Shown in pieces: positions 300-5,927 of a stretch of DNA of 6,360 nt. The stretch is from a virus (taxonomy: Duplodnaviria; Heunggongvirae; Uroviricota; Caudoviricetes): IMG/VR virus record IMGVR_UViG_2695420732_000016; one strand, given 5' to 3'. Made by a program: the position numbers and the translations under genes. The notes beneath the pieces are model-generated. The model did not search any database. It was not told the DNA's origin and saw nothing but the letters and a program-made list of their open reading frames with translations. How positions within the stretch are numbered: position 1 is the first letter of the stretch; the number at the start of each line of letters is the position of its first letter.

Positions 300-1521
300 G
301 ACCTTTTCCACCATATAAAGGAACAATAAATTCTTTTCTGATAGAGATTTAAATAAAAATACATTATTTTACAAAAAAATAATATCCATTACAAAAACAT
401 CCGATTTTTTTATATTCCCGCTCATCCTGCTAATTTGTATTACAAAAAAATGAAACAACTTGAACCAAAGTGATACAAAATTAGAAAAGAAAACCCCAGG
501 AAGACAAAGAAGACGATCTTTTTCAATGAGTTACACTGATTTATTGACTATGATTTTTAGCAAAACAATCGAAAGCAATGTGTACCGAGAAGGTTAAAAG
601 ATGGAATGGATAGTTATTGACACAGTGATATGCCCATCAAGCGGAATAACGTTTTCAACTGTATGGTGTAAAATAAAGTTGATAATCTGGTATCAGTCAG
701 ATGTGTTCCTGCCACCCGGAAGTATTCTCACACCTGTTAACTCAGGTGTGATTATGGATAATAAGCTGCTTCCATTAACCATTTACAACGTGACACCATT
801 TAACAGAAAATTCTGGTTCCTTATCAGAAATCAAAAAGAGTGCCCCGGGAATTCAGTTAAAACAAAAATAAAATGCCATAATAGTATGTGTGTACTGATG
901 ATATGCCCGTATGGATTATATAAGTAACAACATATGAATACATAACAGATAAACTATTGACCTTGAGGCTCATCCATATAAAGAAGAGCTCTCCGAAGAG
1001 GTGTGTATTTGCATGCACATTCCTTTTTTGCTCTATGTCATGACCTCCGGCGACTCTATCCCGGCACCAGCAAACCCGCATCATTCTCGTTTCCGGTGTC
1101 TCTAAAACCACAGCACACCTGCCCCCCCGCTGAGGGAGGGAAGCACTGTATCCGTACACTCAGCAACAGAAATACCACCTGCTCACTGCGCTACATATCA
1201 GCAACAATTTTATACCCGAACATTATCATTCAACAGCATGGTTCACAACAACATCATAACCCAGGAAACGAGAATCAGATCAAAAAAACAGAAATTTTAC
1301 ATGAAAAATACTGTTTATTAATATTGATAGCGTCGTACCACAAAATACGATGAATTATCCCTGAACTTAACATTAATGCCAGTATGTATTGCCCGCTGGT
1401 ATCAGCGGGCGCTTTAAGAGATCGTATTCATGACTACCTGGGAAAAAGCTATTTTACTATTGTCAGTTTTTATTGCAGCCTTATCTGTCTACTTGCTTCA
1501 CAGCCTGAACTGACCATATCT
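300..1521. other. AT-rich, apparently non-coding tract between the methyltransferase and the NanS-p-like gene, with a more GC-rich core around 1000-1200
   Basis: Strongly A+T-rich with A-tracts; TTACAAAAA occurs three times near 369, 390 and 440. The three track ORFs here (601..927 +, 857..1159 -, 1003..1353 +) translate to low-complexity, Cys/Trp/Ile-rich sequences and two use GTG starts. No tRNA T-loop motif (GGTTCGAATCC or its complement) seen. Confidence 0.5.
1391..1410. other. Perfect 8-bp GC-rich hairpin (GCCCGCTG-GTAT-CAGCGGGC) about 110 nt downstream of the methyltransferase stop
   Basis: Inverted repeat read directly. No clean U-tract follows on either strand (minus: AAUACAUACUGG; plus: GCUUUAAGAG), so it is not a canonical intrinsic terminator; possibly an RNA stability or processing element. 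Confidence 0.4.
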
Positions 1522-2598
1522 TTATCCATCCTTCCCGTCATCAATTGAGCATGTAAGGATGTGACTAATCTCCTTAACGGTCTGCGCAAAACGTTCTGCC
1601 TCCAGTTCAACACCAGTTGCACGACGCCCGAGCGCCATAGCTGCTTTTATGGTTGAGCCAGAACCCATGAAAAAATCCGCCACCAGGTCACCCGGACGAC
1701 TGCTCGCGCAGATTATCTGCCGCAGCATTTCTGCCGGTTTTTCGCACGGATGTTTCCCTGGATAGTACTGCACCGGTTTATGCGTCCACACATCGGTGTA
1801 CGGCACCTGCACCGTCACACCGAAATACCGCCGCAAATTTTTATATTCACTCAGCAGTTCCATGTACTGCCGGTTCAGCTCACTGTATGTGCTGACCAGT
1901 TGGTAATGGGACTTTTCCAGTTCTCCCCGCTGATGTTTCTCTTCTGCCACCCGGGCAAACAGCGACTGTAATTTCAGATAATCGCTTTCGTTCGGTAGCT
2001 GCCACTGACTGGCACTGAACCAGTGCGACACCATGTTTTTCTTTCCTGTGGCATCTGCAATCTGTTTTGCCGTTATCCCAAGAGCAGCACGCGCATCACG
2101 AAAGTAAGAAATCAGCGGGGCCATCACATGCTGTTTCAGTGCCCTGCCCTTCGCCTCATCGCCATCATCTTTCGGACGATACGGCCCCTGATAATGTTCC
2201 GCGAACAGAATGCGTTCTGTGGCCGGAAAATACGCCCGCAGGCTTTCCTTGTTGCACCCGTTCCAGCGTCCGGACGGCTTCGCCCAGATAATATGGTTCA
2301 GCACATTGAAGCGTTCACGCATCATGATTTCAATGTCAGATGCCAGGCGATGGCCACAGAACAGGTAAAGACTTCCGGCAGGTTTCAGCACCCGCCAGAA
2401 CTGCGCCAGACACTGGTCCAGCCACTTCAGGTAATCATCGTCGCCCTTCCACTGGTTATCCCAGCCCTCGGGCTTCACTTTAAAGTATGGCGGGTCTGTG
2501 ACTATCAGATCGACAGAGTTTTCCGGTAAGGTCTGGATAAATTCCAGGCAATCAGCGTTGATTAACTCACAACTGGATATTTTTACAGTATTAAGCAT
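1522..2598 (-). CDS. DNA methyltransferase, beta-class N6-adenine/N4-cytosine family (DPPY motif favours N6-adenine); orphan prophage methyltransferase
   Basis: 358-aa ORF. Catalytic motif IV LIVTDPPYF near the N-terminus (aa ~32-39) and AdoMet motif I FFMGSGST near the C-terminus (aa ~300) give the beta-class order IV then I. No adjacent restriction endonuclease ORF. An in-frame TGA sits immediately upstream of the ATG at 2598, so this is the first possible start; the SD is weak. Confidence 0.9.
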   Translation of the reverse strand: MLNTVKISSCELINADCLEFIQTLPENSVDLIVTDPPYFKVKPEGWDNQWKGDDDYLKWLDQCLAQFWRVLKPAGSLYLFCGHRLASDIEIMMRERFNVLNHIIWAKPSGRWNGCNKESLRAYFPATERILFAEHYQGPYRPKDDGDEAKGRALKQHVMAPLISYFRDARAALGITAKQIADATGKKNMVSHWFSASQWQLPNESDYLKLQSLFARVAEEKHQRGELEKSHYQLVSTYSELNRQYMELLSEYKNLRRYFGVTVQVPYTDVWTHKPVQYYPGKHPCEKPAEMLRQIICASSRPGDLVADFFMGSGSTIKAAMALGRRATGVELEAERFAQTVKEISHILTCSIDDGKDG

Positions 2599-2607
2599 GG
2601 ATCATTA

Positions 2608-2649
2608 AGCCTGTCTCTGATAGGCTCATTCTGCTTTTGCGCAAAGCAG
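2608..2649 (-). promoter_or_regulatory. Two inverted repeats in the methyltransferase 5' region: AGCCT-N9-AGGCT (2608-2626) over the expected SD, and an imperfect palindrome CTGCTTTTGCGCAAAGCAG (2631-2649) overlapping a weak sigma70-like promoter
   Basis: Both repeats read directly. On the minus strand a possible -35 TTGCGC, 16-bp spacer, -10 TATCAG lies about 30 nt upstream of the ATG. The promoter match is weak. Confidence 0.3.
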
Positions 2650-2734
2650 TGGGCCTGAGGTTTGCTTGTGAACCCAACGCATGAGCAGATGGCTGGTAGG
2701 TGCCCCTAACACCCACCAGCCGCCCATTTACCAC

Positions 2735-2762
2735 AAATAAAAAAGCCTTCACTGCGGAAGGC
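2735..2762 (-). terminator. Rho-independent terminator at the end of the 65-aa ORF
   Basis: Minus strand reads GCCUUC-CGCAGU-GAAGGC followed by UUUUUUAUUU (plus-strand stem 2745-2762, A-tract 2735-2744). The stop codon of the 65-aa ORF lies inside the 3' arm of the stem. Confidence 0.65.
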
Positions 2763-2946
2763 GTCTGTAACAACCGAACTGATAGTCTGCCAGACCCGCC
2801 ATAACAAGCTGGGTCAGTATTAACTGGCAGCGTTCGCGTGAAAGGTAAGTATTCTGCGCAATCTCCCCGACTGTCGCCGGGTCGGTAACGCTTAATTCAT
2901 TAAACACCACTCTGGCGGTTTCTGTCATATCCTGCTGTTTTAGCAT
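2749..2946 (-). CDS. Small putative winged-helix DNA-binding protein (FaeA/PapI-like pattern), 65 aa
   Basis: ORF with ATG at 2946 and a purine-rich SD-like stretch (AAAGGGAAAAAAGAC) upstream. The segment VFNELSVTDPATVGEIAQNTYLSRERCQLILTQLVMAGLADY resembles the PapI/FaeA winged-helix pattern (ILEFLN...[28 protein letters not shown]). The assignment is from recalled family patterns, not a search. Confidence 0.45.
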   Translation of the reverse strand: MLKQQDMTETARVVFNELSVTDPATVGEIAQNTYLSRERCQLILTQLVMAGLADYQFGCYRRLPQ

Positions 2947-3068
2947 GTCTTTTTTCCCTTTTGGTTAACGTGACATACCAATAACTCTTGTCCAAAAAGC
3001 CAGTAAGCAGAAAGACCGGTATTCGCAACCACCAGCGCATTTAACGCCCCGTGCCGTTTTTCAGTCAT

Positions 3069-3093
3069 AAAAAAACCCGCAAAAAGCGGGCTC
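3069..3093 (-). terminator. Rho-independent terminator about 100 nt downstream of the Q-like gene (tR'-like position)
   Basis: Minus strand reads (GAG)CCCGC-UUUUU-GCGGG followed by UUUUUUU (plus-strand stem 3076-3090, A-tract 3069-3075). Short GC stem with a 7-U tail; position matches the terminator of the short PR' transcript in lambdoid phages. Confidence 0.55.
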
Positions 3094-3169
3094 TTTCAAA
3101 TGTCCATGTCTGCTATTCGCCTCGCGGTACAGCTTTGCGAAGCTTACCGGAATTGAAGCAGTTTTTACG

Positions 3170-3736
3170 TCAAAAAGCAATAACTTTTTTCTCTATACCA
3201 AAAGCCATAACCATTGGTTTGTACAAAATAAATTCTGCCACCTTTAGCCAATGCTCAATGCGTCTTTCACAGGTTCTTAAACTCCATTCCGGATGTGCAT
3301 CATTCAGCAGTTCAGCCATTTTGCGCTTAGTCATCCCCCGCCCCACATAACGCTGACTCAGAACATTGAGCAGCCCGGGATAACCTGCCAGTACTTCACC
3401 AATAACCCTGTCGATTATTAACGCCTCTGAATCGGTACAATGTGCCAGCCAGCTTTTTTGATTGCCGTTGATCATATCCCGCAAAAAAGCCTCAAGTTCA
3501 GGTTTGTCCAGACCCGCTTTTTTCATCCTCCGGAGCGCCTCGTTAATTGCCGTTTTTGTCAGCTTTTTAGAGGTCAGTAATTGGTTGAACATATTTCCCG
3601 TCTTACCGTCGCCAATATACGACCAACGCCCCCACATACGCAGTTTCCCCTGGATCCAGACACTTTCCAGCGTTTTCAGGCGTAAATGCTCACCGCTTTT
3701 GCCTGTAATTTCCGGGTATATCATATTTATGCTCAC
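3170..3736 (-). CDS. Q-like late-gene antitermination protein (putative)
   Basis: 188-aa ORF directly downstream of rusA and upstream of tandem terminators and late-type cargo, the canonical lambdoid Q position. N-terminal LRMWGRWS resembles the conserved ERWGAWA motif of P22 gp23-type Q proteins. The track start at 3736 is GTG, overlapping the rusA stop as GTGA; an in-frame ATG at 3724 (MIYPEITG...) is an alternative start. Confidence 0.6.
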   Translation of the reverse strand: MSINMIYPEITGKSGEHLRLKTLESVWIQGKLRMWGRWSYIGDGKTGNMFNQLLTSKKLTKTAINEALRRMKKAGLDKPELEAFLRDMINGNQKSWLAHCTDSEALIIDRVIGEVLAGYPGLLNVLSQRYVGRGMTKRKMAELLNDAHPEWSLRTCERRIEHWLKVAEFILYKPMVMAFGIEKKVIAF

Positions 3737-4092
3737 TCACTTTCAATTTTGTAAATCTTCACGCCCAGCCGCCCACCAGAAACGAGCTGACCGCGCACAA
3801 TATTGATTTCATCAAACTGCTCGTCGTCTATGAGAAGTCCGGCATGCGTCAGCGCATCCAGCGGTGCTTTCAGGATATTGTCCAGATCACGACGGCGCTT
3901 ATCCGGTGGCTCTGCAATAATCTTTATCGCCAGCCTTCCGGACAGGCTTAATTTCAGCCGCTGCTGGCGAACAATAAGCGCCACAGCCCGGCGATAACGC
4001 TTTCCCTCCTCCGAGATAAAATATGTGCTGCCACGGCGTCGCCAGTAAGTGTTCACCGTCGGCGGGTAAGGTAAAACCAAATCTATGAGCAT
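3733..4092 (-). CDS. rusA: Crossover junction endodeoxyribonuclease RusA (Holliday junction resolvase)
   Basis: 119-aa ORF with RusA hallmarks: LPYPPTVN near the N-terminus, the catalytic-region block DKRRRDLDN, DALTHAGL, DDEQ and GGRLGV, matching E. coli RusA (LPWPPSNN, DRRRRDLDN, DALTKAGF, DDAQ, GGRLEL). Good SD (AAGAGGTGA) about 5 nt before the ATG; starts 12 nt after the upstream gene's stop. Confidence 0.92.
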   Translation of the reverse strand: MLIDLVLPYPPTVNTYWRRRGSTYFISEEGKRYRRAVALIVRQQRLKLSLSGRLAIKIIAEPPDKRRRDLDNILKAPLDALTHAGLLIDDEQFDEINIVRGQLVSGGRLGVKIYKIESE

Positions 4093-4104: not shown

Positions 4105-5154
4105 TTACCCAAGCACGCCAGTTGCAAAGGCGTGATCAAGAAAACGAAAAATTAAATCAACCTGAGAACCATGCTTTTCTTCGAACGCCAGCGGATCCGC
4201 ATGAAGCTCGTTGTGATGCTCCCGACACAGCGGTAGCGTGAAAATATCGTGAGATTTTGTCCCCATTCCGCCCTGACCATGACCAATCAGGTGATGGGGA
4301 TCGTCGGCTGGCTTACCACAACACGCACACGGCTGAGTCTTCACCCAGCGTGTGTATTTCTCGTTAACCCAGCGGCGACGTTTAGGTCGTTTCATGAAAG
4401 ATTCCGGAGACTCAGGATCAACGGCAATGCTGACCACCGTCTTTTCCTGTGGTGGGTTCTGTTGCTGGTGGGCGTGAGGCAGCGGCGCAAGATTTTTTGT
4501 GCGCTGTTTCAGTATGCTGATGGCGGTCTGCTCTCCCGGTACGATGTCGCTTTCGCGGTACAAGGAGCGGATTTTTTCCGCACGTAACCCCAGAGAACGA
4601 CGTAATACTGCCTCCGGAAGCGCGTCCGCCACCTGATTGCAGACCGCCCACCAGGATAATTCAGCCAGCGACAATTCCCGCTCCTGCGTGCCATTCATTG
4701 CATGGCGTATGACGTCAATCATCCATGCTGACAGGTTTTGATGAGCAAGTTGCCCGAGTGATTCGGATGTCTGGTCACGCAACTGGTTGTCGCAGTGCCA
4801 GCACAACACCATCGCGCCGGTACCGTAACGATGTATGACGATTTCACTGTGATGATAGTCACCATGAGGCCACTGGCAGGATTTGACATGACGCAACAGC
4901 CAGTCAGACAGTGCCCCAGCGCCGCCAGCAGCACGAATCACCCGCTCATCGCTGAAAAATGGCAGAAATGATTTATCCTCCGCCAGCGGCTGGCGAACGG
5001 CAGGGACGACTCCGGACGGCAGACCGCGCATGCTTTTCGGTTCAGGCTCCACCAGCACTCGAGGGTTATGAAATACTTGCATGGATTCACGGCCCGGCCT
5101 AAGGACCACCAGCCCGAGTTCCGGTACCAGAACAGGTCGAAGTAATATCCGCAC
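4105..5154 (-). CDS. DUF968/YdfU-like prophage protein with C-terminal HNH-type zinc-finger nuclease motif
   Basis: C-terminus CACCGKPADDPHHLIGHGQGGMGTKSHDIFTLPLCREHHNELH is an HNH-like Cys/His motif; the organisation matches Qin-prophage YdfU. The track frame is open from ATG 5226 (373 aa), but that start overlaps the upstream ORF by 71 nt and adds a low-complexity 24-aa tail. I favour GTG at 5154..5152, preceded by GGAGGTAAC and placed 1 nt after the upstream TAA, giving 349 aa. ATG at 5082 is another alternative. Confidence 0.8.
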   Translation of the reverse strand: MRILLRPVLVPELGLVVLRPGRESMQVFHNPRVLVEPEPKSMRGLPSGVVPAVRQPLAEDKSFLPFFSDERVIRAAGGAGALSDWLLRHVKSCQWPHGDYHHSEIVIHRYGTGAMVLCWHCDNQLRDQTSESLGQLAHQNLSAWMIDVIRHAMNGTQERELSLAELSWWAVCNQVADALPEAVLRRSLGLRAEKIRSLYRESDIVPGEQTAISILKQRTKNLAPLPHAHQQQNPPQEKTVVSIAVDPESPESFMKRPKRRRWVNEKYTRWVKTQPCACCGKPADDPHHLIGHGQGGMGTKSHDIFTLPLCREHHNELHADPLAFEEKHGSQVDLIFRFLDHAFATGVLG

Positions 5155-5500: not shown

Positions 5501-5527
5501 AAAAAACAAAACCCGCCGAAGCGGGTT
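5501..5527 (-). terminator. Rho-independent terminator of the hok transcript
   Basis: Minus strand reads AACCCGC-UUCG-GCGGGUU followed by UUGUUUUUU: a 7-bp stem with a UUCG tetraloop and U-tract, about 70-95 nt downstream of the hokD stop. Confidence 0.75.
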
Positions 5528-5566
5528 AAGTGCGGGTGCGTTGAGGATGCCTGACTCATCAGAGGT

Positions 5567-5588
5567 GGCGAGGGATTTCTCCCTCGCC
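5567..5588 (-). other. Perfect 9-bp GC-rich hairpin in the hokD 3' UTR (GGCGAGGGA-TTTC-TCCCTCGCC), candidate fold-back (fbi-like) element
   Basis: Inverted repeat read directly, 8 nt downstream of the hokD stop. hok-family mRNAs carry structured 3' ends that pair with the 5' leader. Confidence 0.45.
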
Positions 5589-5595
5589 TGGTCTC

Positions 5596-5751
5596 TTACT
5601 CCTCAGGTTCGTAAGCTGTGAAGACAGCGACCTCCGTCTGGCCGGTTCGGATTCGTACCTCGCAGAGGTCTTTCCTCGTTACCAGTGCCGTCACTATGAC
5701 GGTTAAACAGATGACGATCAGGGCGATTAACATCGCCTTTTGCTGCTTCAT
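5596..5751 (-). CDS. hokD: Hok-family type I toxin (small membrane-depolarising peptide), HokD/RelF-like
   Basis: 51-aa product MKQQKAMLIALIVICLTVIVTALVTRKDLCEVRIRTGQTEVAVFTAYEPEE: a single transmembrane helix followed by the conserved TRK.LCE.R...G..EVA.F.AYE core of Hok/Gef. SD AAGGAG 9 nt upstream of ATG 5751..5749. Confidence 0.9.
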   Translation of the reverse strand: MKQQKAMLIALIVICLTVIVTALVTRKDLCEVRIRTGQTEVAVFTAYEPEE

Positions 5752-5808
5752 AGCCTGCTTCTCCTTGCCTTTCGGCACGTAAGAGGCTAACCTACATGTG
5801 CAAAGCAT
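5596..5808 (-). CDS. Mok-like in-frame N-terminally extended reading frame of hokD (putative translational coupling frame)
   Basis: The 70-aa track ORF begins at ATG 5808 with SD GAGG 8 nt upstream and shares hokD's frame and stop. This matches my recollection that chromosomal mok frames share their stop with hok. The mok SD can pair with GCCUC at 5783-5787 in a hairpin that encloses the start codon. Confidence 0.5.
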   Translation of the reverse strand: MLCTCRLASYVPKGKEKQAMKQQKAMLIALIVICLTVIVTALVTRKDLCEVRIRTGQTEVAVFTAYEPEE

Positions 5809-5927
5809 GAAATTGGCCTCAGATTAATGTTAAGCGTCTTGCCGGACGCGTAATGTTAACTGGGGCTTTTCTCTATCTGCCTTTTGGTGTTCATACCTGA
5901 GGCAGATAGCCTCAAGCACCCGCAGCA

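Follow-up and report, generated by a model that had tools for sequence, protein, structure and literature searches.

M.EcoGII is in wide use as a tool for chromatin and RNA labelling. M.EcoGII and M.EcoGI are non-specific beta-class N6-adenine methyltransferases of Escherichia coli O104:H4 prophages; M.EcoGII methylates adenine in any context, is unexpressed in the native lysogen and is deleterious on expression, and it was proposed to be turned on when the prophage launches infection, to defeat restriction (Murray et al. 2018, PMC5778455). Homologues of the two enzymes (~93% similarity) are listed as 'nonspecific' and are inactive in the methylomes of lysogens of Shiga toxin (Stx)-producing E. 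coli (PMC6602927). How a phage controls so toxic an enzyme, by silencing and then deployment, is a problem that is not yet worked out. In phage Mu, the zinc-ribbon protein Com is the translational activator of Mom (PMC6483171), and Mu-like prophages have, in place of mom after com, the non-specific adenine methylases Hin1523, Hia5 and Nma1821 (PMC3299994). In lambdoid phages PR' fires constitutively, and in lysogens its transcripts end at tR' (PMC7547250). Here we analyse a stretch of 6,360 nucleotides from a virus of the Caudoviricetes (IMG/VR record IMGVR_UViG_2695420732_000016; the window), in which the gene of a 65-residue winged-helix protein, a conserved leader RNA and a methyltransferase gene follow one another downstream of a Q-like antiterminator gene (Table 1). 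The initial annotation of this DNA had proposed an epigenetic module in which a PapI/FaeA-like regulator is paired with an orphan methyltransferase. The region looks like a tightly gated anti-restriction module and not like an epigenetic switch; we assign a probability of about 0.6 to the reading that it is a late-operon, tightly gated anti-restriction cassette of a lambdoid prophage with a winged-helix accessory factor.

An M.EcoGII orthologue in the late operon of a lambdoid prophage

The methyltransferase scores 147.9 bits against Pfam N6_N4_Mtase (PF01555; cut-off 26.7) and carries TDPPYF at residues 34-39 (motif IV, N-terminal) and FMGSGS at residues 310-315 (motif I, C-terminal), which is the beta-class order; its solved relatives are 8urk/9c3u, RsrI, CcrM and MboIIA. 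It is identical to M.EcoGII at 321 of 350 residues along the whole length, the target recognition domain (TRD) included, and this 92% is a lower bound, the comparison sequence having been machine-read from the supplement of PMC11551740. The window allele has 358 residues and M.EcoGII 349, and the C-terminal tails differ. The enzyme type itself is thus already known, and the initial annotation was right in placing a beta-class DPPY N6-adenine methyltransferase immediately downstream of the 65-codon open reading frame (ORF) on the minus strand. The identity comparison points to a non-specific enzyme of the M.EcoGII kind, which would offer no target site for a Pap-like switch. The enzyme is a prophage-borne orphan: no restriction enzyme gene is present in the window, as had been noted before, or within 9 kb to the left and right of the identical locus in E. 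coli O103. In one IMG/VR contig with an E. coli-type cassette (L126), an internal deletion joins the leader to the last 62 methyltransferase codons, and a tRNA-like sequence follows the junction gene, as in Stx phages.

Positions 1400-3200 of the window are 100% identical to the chromosome of E. coli O103 strain ML775, and related DNA is found in 2,231 of 5,426 complete E. coli genomes, 1,899 of them with at least 80% query coverage, so that ~35% of complete E. coli genomes hold the cassette nearly whole. The ML775 region is a lambdoid prophage with the gene order racR, replication genes, hokD, DUF968, rusA and the DUF1133 Q-like gene, followed by a hypothetical protein, the DNA methyltransferase, iraM on the opposite strand, a SASA esterase, holin, lysozyme and terminase. 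The Q-like gene scores 349 bits for Pfam DUF1133 and 33 bits for Phage_antitermQ, belongs to phrog_753 ('anti-termination protein Q-like') and is named DUF1133 family protein by the Prokaryotic Genome Annotation Pipeline (PGAP). All cassette genes are on the minus strand, and because the 65-codon ORF and the methyltransferase lie downstream of this antiterminator they are placed in the late operon. The cassette lies after Q and before the lysis genes, in the place that stx takes in Stx phages; it is often found in Stx phages between Q and stx, and in phiP27 and 1720a-02 the order is Q, small ORF, methylase, tRNAs and stx.

Two predicted terminators precede the methyltransferase. The first, which the initial annotation did not mention, is a probable tR'-type terminator ~80 nt past the Q stop codon; it is the stronger of the two, and its hairpin has a conserved counterpart in 12 aligned loci and is an annotated terminator in SfV. 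A weak isrK-like Rfam match (3070-3143, minus; 19.8 bits, E=0.6, under the gathering score) overlaps it and covers the short RNA between Q and this terminator, which is the position of lambda 6S RNA and StxS. The second is the intrinsic terminator that had been noticed between the two genes, and it is borne out as a predicted hairpin of the intrinsic-terminator kind, with a 6-bp stem (4 G-C pairs), a 6-nt loop and a U-tract; it overlaps the stop codon of the small ORF and lies directly 5' of the leader RNA. Equivalents are present in most Enterobacteriaceae loci and are lacking in Proteus, Providencia and Morganella. A sigma-70 scan of the minus strand from 1400 to 3800 gave no promoter-like site, and a methyltransferase promoter in the intergenic region was rejected on that ground. 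The small gene has a conserved 5' leader of its own, with blocks that are invariant from E. coli to Proteus and Morganella; in the minimum free energy (MFE) fold of the window, TTGGTATGTC pairs with GACATGCTAA around the small-gene start codon (2937-2975, minus), and on this predicted pairing the small gene may also be translationally masked.

Table 1. Coordinates of the cassette and its elements within the window
Feature	Position	Strand	Evidence or remark
M.EcoGII-orthologous beta-class N6-adenine DNA methyltransferase, 358 aa	1522-2598	minus	ORF, Pfam, identity to M.EcoGII
Conserved structured leader RNA (~125 nt), three-way junction and two hairpins	2596-2733	minus	conservation, covariation
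Helix P0	2722-2726 with 2650-2654	minus	closes three-way junction of P1 and P2
Helix P1	2710-2721 with 2691-2702	minus	
Helix P2	2681-2687 with 2663-2669	minus	
Helix P3	2643-2649 with 2631-2637	minus	
Helix P4	2619-2626 with 2608-2615	minus	ends 9 nt before ATG
Terminator-like hairpin GCCTTC-CGCAGT-GAAGGC, then TTTTTTATTT	2735-2762	minus	terminator scan, MFE fold
65-aa winged-helix protein gene, phrog_331	2749-2946	minus	ORF, dN/dS, AlphaFold, PHROGs
Conserved 5' leader of small gene (CTTGCTG..CAGAGTTA..GT.T.T..AAGGGAAAAAAGAC)	2947-3010	minus	alignment A6
Probable tR'-type intrinsic terminator, GCCCGC-TTTTT-GCGGG and 7 U	3066-3092	minus	sequence, MFE fold
Q-like late antiterminator gene (DUF1133 / Phage_antitermQ)	3170-3736	minus	Pfam, PHROGs, PGAP

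A covarying leader RNA between the two genes

The stretch between the two genes is conserved in nucleotide sequence far above either flanking gene, whereas synonymous sites of the small gene are saturated, and covariation provides strong support for its folding as an RNA. P1 is kept by compensatory changes, its two strands reading GGCTGGTGGGTG..CACCTACCAGCC in E. coli, GACTGTAAAGGTG..CACCCTTACAGTC in Providencia, GACAGTGAGGATG..CATCCCCGCTGTC in Proteus and TGCGGTGAAAGTG..CACTGACACCGCC in Serratia, and P3 varies in sequence yet stays palindromic (CTGCTTTGCGCAAAAGCAG, GCTGTACAGC, GCCGATCGGC). In an unfitted MAFFT alignment of 54 sequences (A3), 85% of the cells are paired as compared with 31-44% when the partners are slid, and 13 pairs change on both sides. 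The covariance model built from A3 yields double changes in 26 of 34 pairs in its own fitted alignments, and in the diverse set 82.8% of cells are paired versus 26-42% with slid partners, with 412 double-change cells versus 146 in shuffles and three or four Watson-Crick types at individual P1 and P3 pairs, all of these being fitted alignments that lean towards the model. P0 is invariant save for two single events and so fits the fold without proof from covariation. The G-U pairs are compatible with the sense strand only. Rfam 15 has no match to the leader at E<=1, either in the window or in six diverse motif-bearing loci.

These helices bear directly on the palindromes that had been described across a putative methyltransferase promoter and Shine-Dalgarno sequence (2608-2649). 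The inverted repeats are present (2608-2626 and 2631-2649) and correspond to P4 and P3; the promoter drops out with the sigma-70 scan, and there is no clear Shine-Dalgarno sequence before the methyltransferase ATG. A winged-helix transcription factor acting in the manner of a C protein, which binds the palindromes and controls a methyltransferase promoter, would agree with the fold of the 65-residue protein and with R37, R39, Q41, T45 and Q46 on its helix 3, as well as with the persistence of the P3 palindrome through sequence change and the tight linkage of the two genes. Such an operator is nevertheless embedded in a larger covarying fold with strand-specific G-U pairs in a region that lacks a promoter-like site, and the P3-bearing core also occurs without the winged-helix gene and before unrelated genes. 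Moreover, the winged-helix types of SfV and mEp460 differ in helices 1-2 and the wing and stand before identical leaders, the protein is not basic, it has no match to the HTH_3 family of Xre-type C proteins, and no restriction enzyme accompanies it. Since the palindromes behave as RNA helices that are found also without the small protein, a simple C-protein/operator model is not favoured, and we regard it as unlikely.

Two other readings of the leader are not favoured. The invariant AAAUGGGCG at its 5' edge (2722-2727, minus; all motif instances) contains AUG, from which an upstream ORF of 33 codons runs in the window, 7 in most Enterobacteriaceae and 16 in Morganella, with the stop falling within the conserved GTGAGCC in several types; a conserved leader peptide has little in its favour, the ORF being 7-34 codons long, its peptide unconserved and its start without a Shine-Dalgarno sequence. 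The leader as Chi-related DNA was rejected: P1 of E. coli contains the octamer GCTGGTGG, but in Providencia, Proteus and Serratia compensatory changes have done away with it, and Chi is therefore not the conserved feature.

Pattern scans of IMG/VR followed by the covariance model gave ~110 further leader instances, and the first gene after the motif was tallied for 60 diverse ones. It is an M.EcoGII-type methylase in 5 loci, a Com-like ORF, usually then an M.EcoGII-type methylase, in 9, a Mom-family protein (PF25680, E=7e-71) in 14, a C5 cytosine methylase (PF00145) in 6, a ParB_N-like protein (below cut-off) in 6 and a holin-like protein in 19; the remaining locus has too little downstream sequence for an assignment. 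Loci with the leader core include L300, L295, L309, L322 and L359, and L295 carries an above-threshold isrJ match upstream of the motif. Since the core also precedes Mom, ParB_N-like and holin genes, the leader was rejected as a methyltransferase-specific or SAM (S-adenosylmethionine)-sensing element. In several loci a Q-type antiterminator lies upstream and a G+C-rich hairpin abuts the motif. The stronger statement that a terminator always precedes the motif was dropped: a terminator-like site is found at 73 of 167 cores defined by regular expression, some of them false, and at 54 of 835 random positions; in many of the true cases, moreover, no U-tract follows the G+C-rich hairpin. We claim only that an upstream hairpin is frequent.

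The unrelated first genes share the way they open. They begin with AUGAC(C) or GUGAC(U), giving MT.. for Mom, the C5 methylase and Com and VT.. for the ParB_N-like protein, and these starts are complementary to GGUCAU, which lies in the 3' strand of P2. For leaders of the methyltransferase class, this element can pair with UGAUC just before the AUG; the GATC beside the start codon is conserved, and P4 contains the sole AGG in the vicinity of the start. Taken singly, such helices are short and not significant (10-45% of random 21-mers equal them), and it is the constant position of the complementarity that suggests start-site pairing. The 5' strand of P2 has a possible partner as well, AUGGGC, with 98% of cells able to pair, and in the window this alternative belongs to the MFE fold. 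A translational switch would be expected to show such features, two mutually exclusive folds and a start region that lacks a Shine-Dalgarno sequence, and the leader would on this view gate translation. A broader reading, which we put forward tentatively, is that the leader represents an undescribed class of phage riboregulators that head Q-dependent late operons in gammaproteobacterial temperate phages and gate translation of the first gene through alternative pairing that hides the start, the 65-residue protein being a new trans-acting counterpart of Com added by M.EcoGII-type cassettes. Under it, the first late gene would very often be a DNA-modification enzyme (Mom, M.EcoGII-type or C5 methylase, or Com with a methylase). 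The leader RNA is a candidate for a new RNA family, and since it is shared by late operons in which the first DNA-modification gene is of four or five unrelated kinds, it points to common control of anti-restriction functions.

The 65-residue winged-helix protein and its association with the methyltransferase

The small ORF is a genuine gene under strong purifying selection: in comparison with 14 orthologues, pN is 0.03-0.24 and pS 0.45-0.85 (saturated), and dN/dS is 0.03-0.13 where it can be computed. It is annotated by PGAP, some orthologues being named 'TrmB family transcriptional regulator', and matches phrog_331 (E=2.8e-37), for which PHROGs gives the function label unknown; NCBIfam has no match. 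The AlphaFold model, built with 34 homologues, has a pLDDT (predicted local distance difference test) of 92.6 and the winged-helix topology H-H-H-beta-beta (helices 9-16, 26-33 and 37-49; strands 53-56 and 59-62). Conservation is highest in the N-terminal MLKQxDMT, a tail of low model confidence, and in helix 3 (RCQLILTQL.MAGL), which is very hydrophobic. The protein has two cysteines (C40, C59) and no zinc-ribbon match, and is thus without the Cys4 motif of Com (PF10122).

The fold, at a size like that of PapI (~70 aa), is in agreement with the initial annotation and is a generic feature; the more specific PapI/FaeA-like pattern was not recovered. Pfam FaeA (PF04703), the search that had been recommended, does not match the window protein at E<=1 and lies outside the 25 most frequent of the 31 Pfam families matched by 34 family members at E<=10. 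The recurring weak matches among these members are instead TrmB (30/34), DprA_WH (27/34), Rrf2 and MarR_2, and the sub-threshold TrmB, DprA_WH and MarR_2 matches share one register. For TrmB (PF01978) the window protein reaches 17.3 bits, below the cut-off of 25.6, and the best family member E=3.3e-4; for DprA_WH (PF17782) it reaches 15.1 bits versus a cut-off of 22.9, whereas a Rosenbergiella orthologue attains 23.1 bits and the best member E=7e-6. In a family-profile search of PDB sequences, DsyB-type methyltransferases were matched in their winged-helix domain (E=7.6e-4) and PapI was absent at E<=10. The Foldseek top 50, at E of ~1e-3, consist of winged-helix domains from either SAM-dependent O-methyltransferases or MarR and IclR regulators, PapI not being among them. 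The family comprises 88 clusters at 50% identity in 1.84 billion representatives, all of them short stand-alone proteins except one, and this sole long protein matched by the family profile is a true DprA (P0225, 405 aa; E=4e-4). Its C-terminal DprA_WH domain (residues 345-403; ..SILTQLEMYGLI..) resembles helix 3 of the family.

In favour of a heritable switch coupled to prophage induction, in which a PapI/FaeA-type co-regulator acts together with site-specific adenine methylation, one could name the shared fold, the adjoining adenine methyltransferase and the GATC conserved at the start codon of that gene. Beyond the missing FaeA and PapI signal, however, the enzyme is orthologous to M.EcoGII, which methylates without specificity and stays silent in lysogens, the genes lie in a late operon that depends on Q and not in a fimbrial operon under Lrp and Dam, and the conserved GATC lies within a transcribed leader where it is readable as an RNA pairing partner. 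With a non-specific enzyme that is off in the lysogen there would be no specific site with a heritable methylation state and hence no Pap-like switch; we consider this explanation, and with it the heritable methylation switch first proposed, extremely improbable.

The association of the small gene with the enzyme is close. In all eight phage genomes inspected (1720a-02, Morganella IME1369_02, SfV, phiP27, mEp460, a Stx2c phage, Providencia PSTRCR_117lys and cdtI), Q of various types is followed by the small ORF, a gap of 138-150 nt and the methyltransferase, and the order is kept down to 48%/61% protein identity; from E. coli to Morganella, Proteus and Providencia, the small gene nearly always keeps a distance of ~150 nt to the M.EcoGII-type gene behind it. 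Among 80 loci (one enzyme relative per species), ~64 bear the leader, and ~40 of these have a winged-helix match ending ~150 nt upstream. In IMG/VR, 76 E. coli-type winged-helix loci extend far enough downstream to be judged, and in 75 of them the enzyme follows at identical spacing; a winged-helix hidden Markov model run on 78 viral loci from the motif scan found copies only beside enterobacterial M.EcoGII-type genes. In other loci the winged-helix slot is empty or filled by another gene; in L020 and L024 (Kosakonia; contig labelled Vagococcus), L017, L022, L054, L037 and L064, genes of a 79-aa zinc-ribbon protein or of 220-aa, 300-aa or 163-aa proteins take the slot, and the leader and methyltransferase are intact.

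That the small gene is an independent moron beside the methyltransferase, with a function unrelated to methylation, would be in keeping with its own conserved 5' leader and terminator, its absence from one third of enzyme loci and the use of its slot by other small genes in some genomes (the 79-aa zinc-ribbon protein and the 220-300-aa proteins). We think this improbable: in the loci examined the gene is found only beside M.EcoGII-type genes, at fixed spacing and across Enterobacterales, and no sigma-70 promoter was detected for it.

Relatives of the enzyme in Vibrio and Shewanella have a different small gene upstream, a 36-42-aa ORF of the form ..LRCPxCxKLLC...V.IKCxRCK... (L071-L073, L083, L085, L088, L328, L340, L352 and L359). 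When two of these were scanned, Zn_ribbon_Com was the top Pfam match of one (E=0.0016, 18.3 bits, cut-off 22.9) and a lower-ranked match of the other (E=0.037). The gap between the Com-like ORF and the methyltransferase holds a conserved GAG.GCCAAGAGC.CC element and a hairpin over the methyltransferase GGAGG, an arrangement that resembles com-mom but with a beta-class methylase. In Aliivibrio and in further Vibrio loci, the upstream ORF has 63-98 aa and bears a weak in-register likeness to the winged-helix family; homology of these ORFs was not adopted, the likeness being weak only (hhalign probability 31%, E=5e-4). Another conserved leader, unrelated to the first and reading GCCTTGAGTACCTGAGACCCA..GGAGAGGAAGCA..terminator-like hairpin..TTCAAGGCTC, stands upstream of Vibrio, Aliivibrio and Psychromonas methyltransferase genes (L075-L087) and, in L359, ~50-100 nt upstream of the motif; it has no Rfam match in L081 or L359.

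From the near-exclusive association and the Com-like replacement in Vibrio, we infer that the winged-helix protein serves the enzyme, most likely by tuning the methyltransferase in a role like that of Com for Mom. The earlier suggestion of a controller for an anti-restriction methyltransferase accordingly survives as plausible, though unproven, given the fixed linkage and the Com-like counterparts; the palindrome operator attached to it does not. As for the manner of action, the fold family leans towards nucleic acid, whereas the acidity, the hydrophobic helix 3 and the conserved N-terminal tail incline us slightly towards protein contact. In its full form, the latter would make the protein a subunit, chaperone or inhibitor of the methyltransferase, or a binder of a host factor, that does not bind nucleic acid at all. 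Its best neighbours do include the winged-helix dimerisation domains of the SAM-dependent O-methyltransferases RedM, DsyB and PigF, the family resembles the C-terminal winged helix of DprA, its net charge is neutral to acidic, conservation peaks in the low-confidence tail and the hydrophobic helix, and the protein is dispensable in cis in one third of loci. Fusions to an N6_N4 methyltransferase, which might have served as a Rosetta stone for the pair, are however absent from the 88 clusters, and winged-helix folds of such size most often bind DNA, so that we hold exclusive protein contact to be rather doubtful.

Proposed operation and comparison with known systems

In lytic growth, Q-modified RNA polymerase from PR' would pass the tR'-type terminator at 3066-3092 and then that at 2735-2762, so that the gene of the 65-residue protein, the second terminator hairpin, the ~125-nt leader RNA and the M.EcoGII orthologue would be transcribed in this order. 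The enzyme would methylate adenines of replicating phage DNA before packaging and without sequence preference, and the methylated progeny would resist many restriction systems in the next host. In the lysogen, the enzyme would be kept off by the two terminators and by a leader without a Shine-Dalgarno sequence that is folded over the start region, which may be why its published relatives are silent in lysogens. The winged-helix protein would be a dedicated accessory that tunes translation or activity of the methyltransferase.

Several points weigh against this reading. The role of the winged-helix protein, whether towards the enzyme or towards the leader, is its least certain part, and the net charge counted from sequences (E. 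coli type, ~-1; Proteus type, ~-4) is not one that proteins binding nucleic acid usually have. About one third of enterobacterial loci with leader and enzyme are without the winged-helix gene, and the leader is equally conserved there, so the protein is not essential in cis; phages that lack the protein, further, have the leader core ahead of genes for Mom, C5 methylase, ParB_N-like proteins or holins, and so the core is not that protein's specific target. The MFE fold of the window, at -61.1 kcal/mol, is more stable than the covariation-supported fold at -45.2 kcal/mol. Finally, that the window enzyme is non-specific like M.EcoGII is a probability drawn from its 92% identity to the tested enzyme.

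As far as our database and literature searches show, what is new is the fixed winged-helix partnership and a covariation-supported leader that is outside Rfam and common to late operons with several unrelated DNA-modification genes at their head; the literature searches returned nothing joining M.EcoGII with antitermination, nor Stx, Q and methylase. If the winged-helix protein and the leader do gate the enzyme, they would constitute a compact natural off/on control for a promiscuous methylase.

Elsewhere in the window, iraM (601-927, plus; NCBIfam 144 bits), which encodes an RpoS-stabilising anti-adapter protein, lies within a 1.2-kb A+T-rich stretch between the methyltransferase and a SASA/NanS-p-like esterase; this is the slot where Stx phages carry tRNAs and stx, and the stretch in the window has no tRNA genes. 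On the early-region side are the hokD toxin gene and sok antisense RNA (Rfam RF01794, 119 bits; 5596-5921, minus), and a second weak isrK-like match lies at 5506-5587 (minus; 27.8 bits, under the gathering score). The 6.36-kb window contains five Chi octamers versus 0.27 expected from shuffles (2713-2720, 3029-3036, 5049-5056 and 5106-5113, minus; 4464-4471, plus), four of them on the late-transcription strand; one of the octamers falls within helix P1, and another in the interval from tR' to the small gene.

Among the closest described systems is that of M.EcoGII and M.EcoGI, with which the locus shares the motif order DPPY-TRD-FxGxG, the identity to M.EcoGII and a prophage-borne, orphan enzyme. 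The M.EcoGII family was noted in phage 1720a-02 (PMC5778455), in which the order of the locus is that of the window; an upstream winged-helix gene, terminators or a leader RNA do not figure in that paper, whose text contains neither the word 'upstream' nor 'terminator'. With pap phase variation by PapI/FaeA, Dam and Lrp, the cassette has in common a small winged-helix protein and adenine methylation nearby, but there is no specific FaeA/PapI match, the methylase is non-specific and off in lysogens, the setting is a prophage and not a fimbrial operon, and paired Lrp sites containing GATC are not evident. The C proteins of restriction-modification systems likewise come from a small regulatory gene that immediately precedes one for methylation, with palindromes between; theirs is an Xre-type helix-turn-helix on C-boxes that times a restriction enzyme, whereas here a winged helix is accompanied by RNA helices. 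The lambdoid PR'-tR' arrangement, as in lambda 6S RNA and StxS (PMC7547250), offers Q, a short leader, a strong terminator and late genes after antitermination, to which the cassette adds a second terminator and a structured RNA past tR'.

The likeness to com-mom of Mu is one of organisation, in that a late, promiscuous, host-harmful DNA modifier is preceded by a small dedicated regulator gene and by mRNA structure at its start site, and Vibrio and Shewanella relatives of the window enzyme themselves carry Com-like zinc-ribbon ORFs. The leader motif is absent from the com-mom region of Mu (best score 3.8 bits with filters off), the small protein is here a winged helix without the Cys4 zinc-binding motif, its gene lies upstream of the leader and a terminator without overlapping the enzyme gene, and late control depends on Q, whereas that of Mu runs via C, Dam and OxyR; the methylases of Mu-like prophages are in addition alpha-class and the window enzyme beta-class. 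If the proposed role of the winged-helix protein is correct, the cassette would represent a second solution, beside Com, to the problem of the Mu mom operon.

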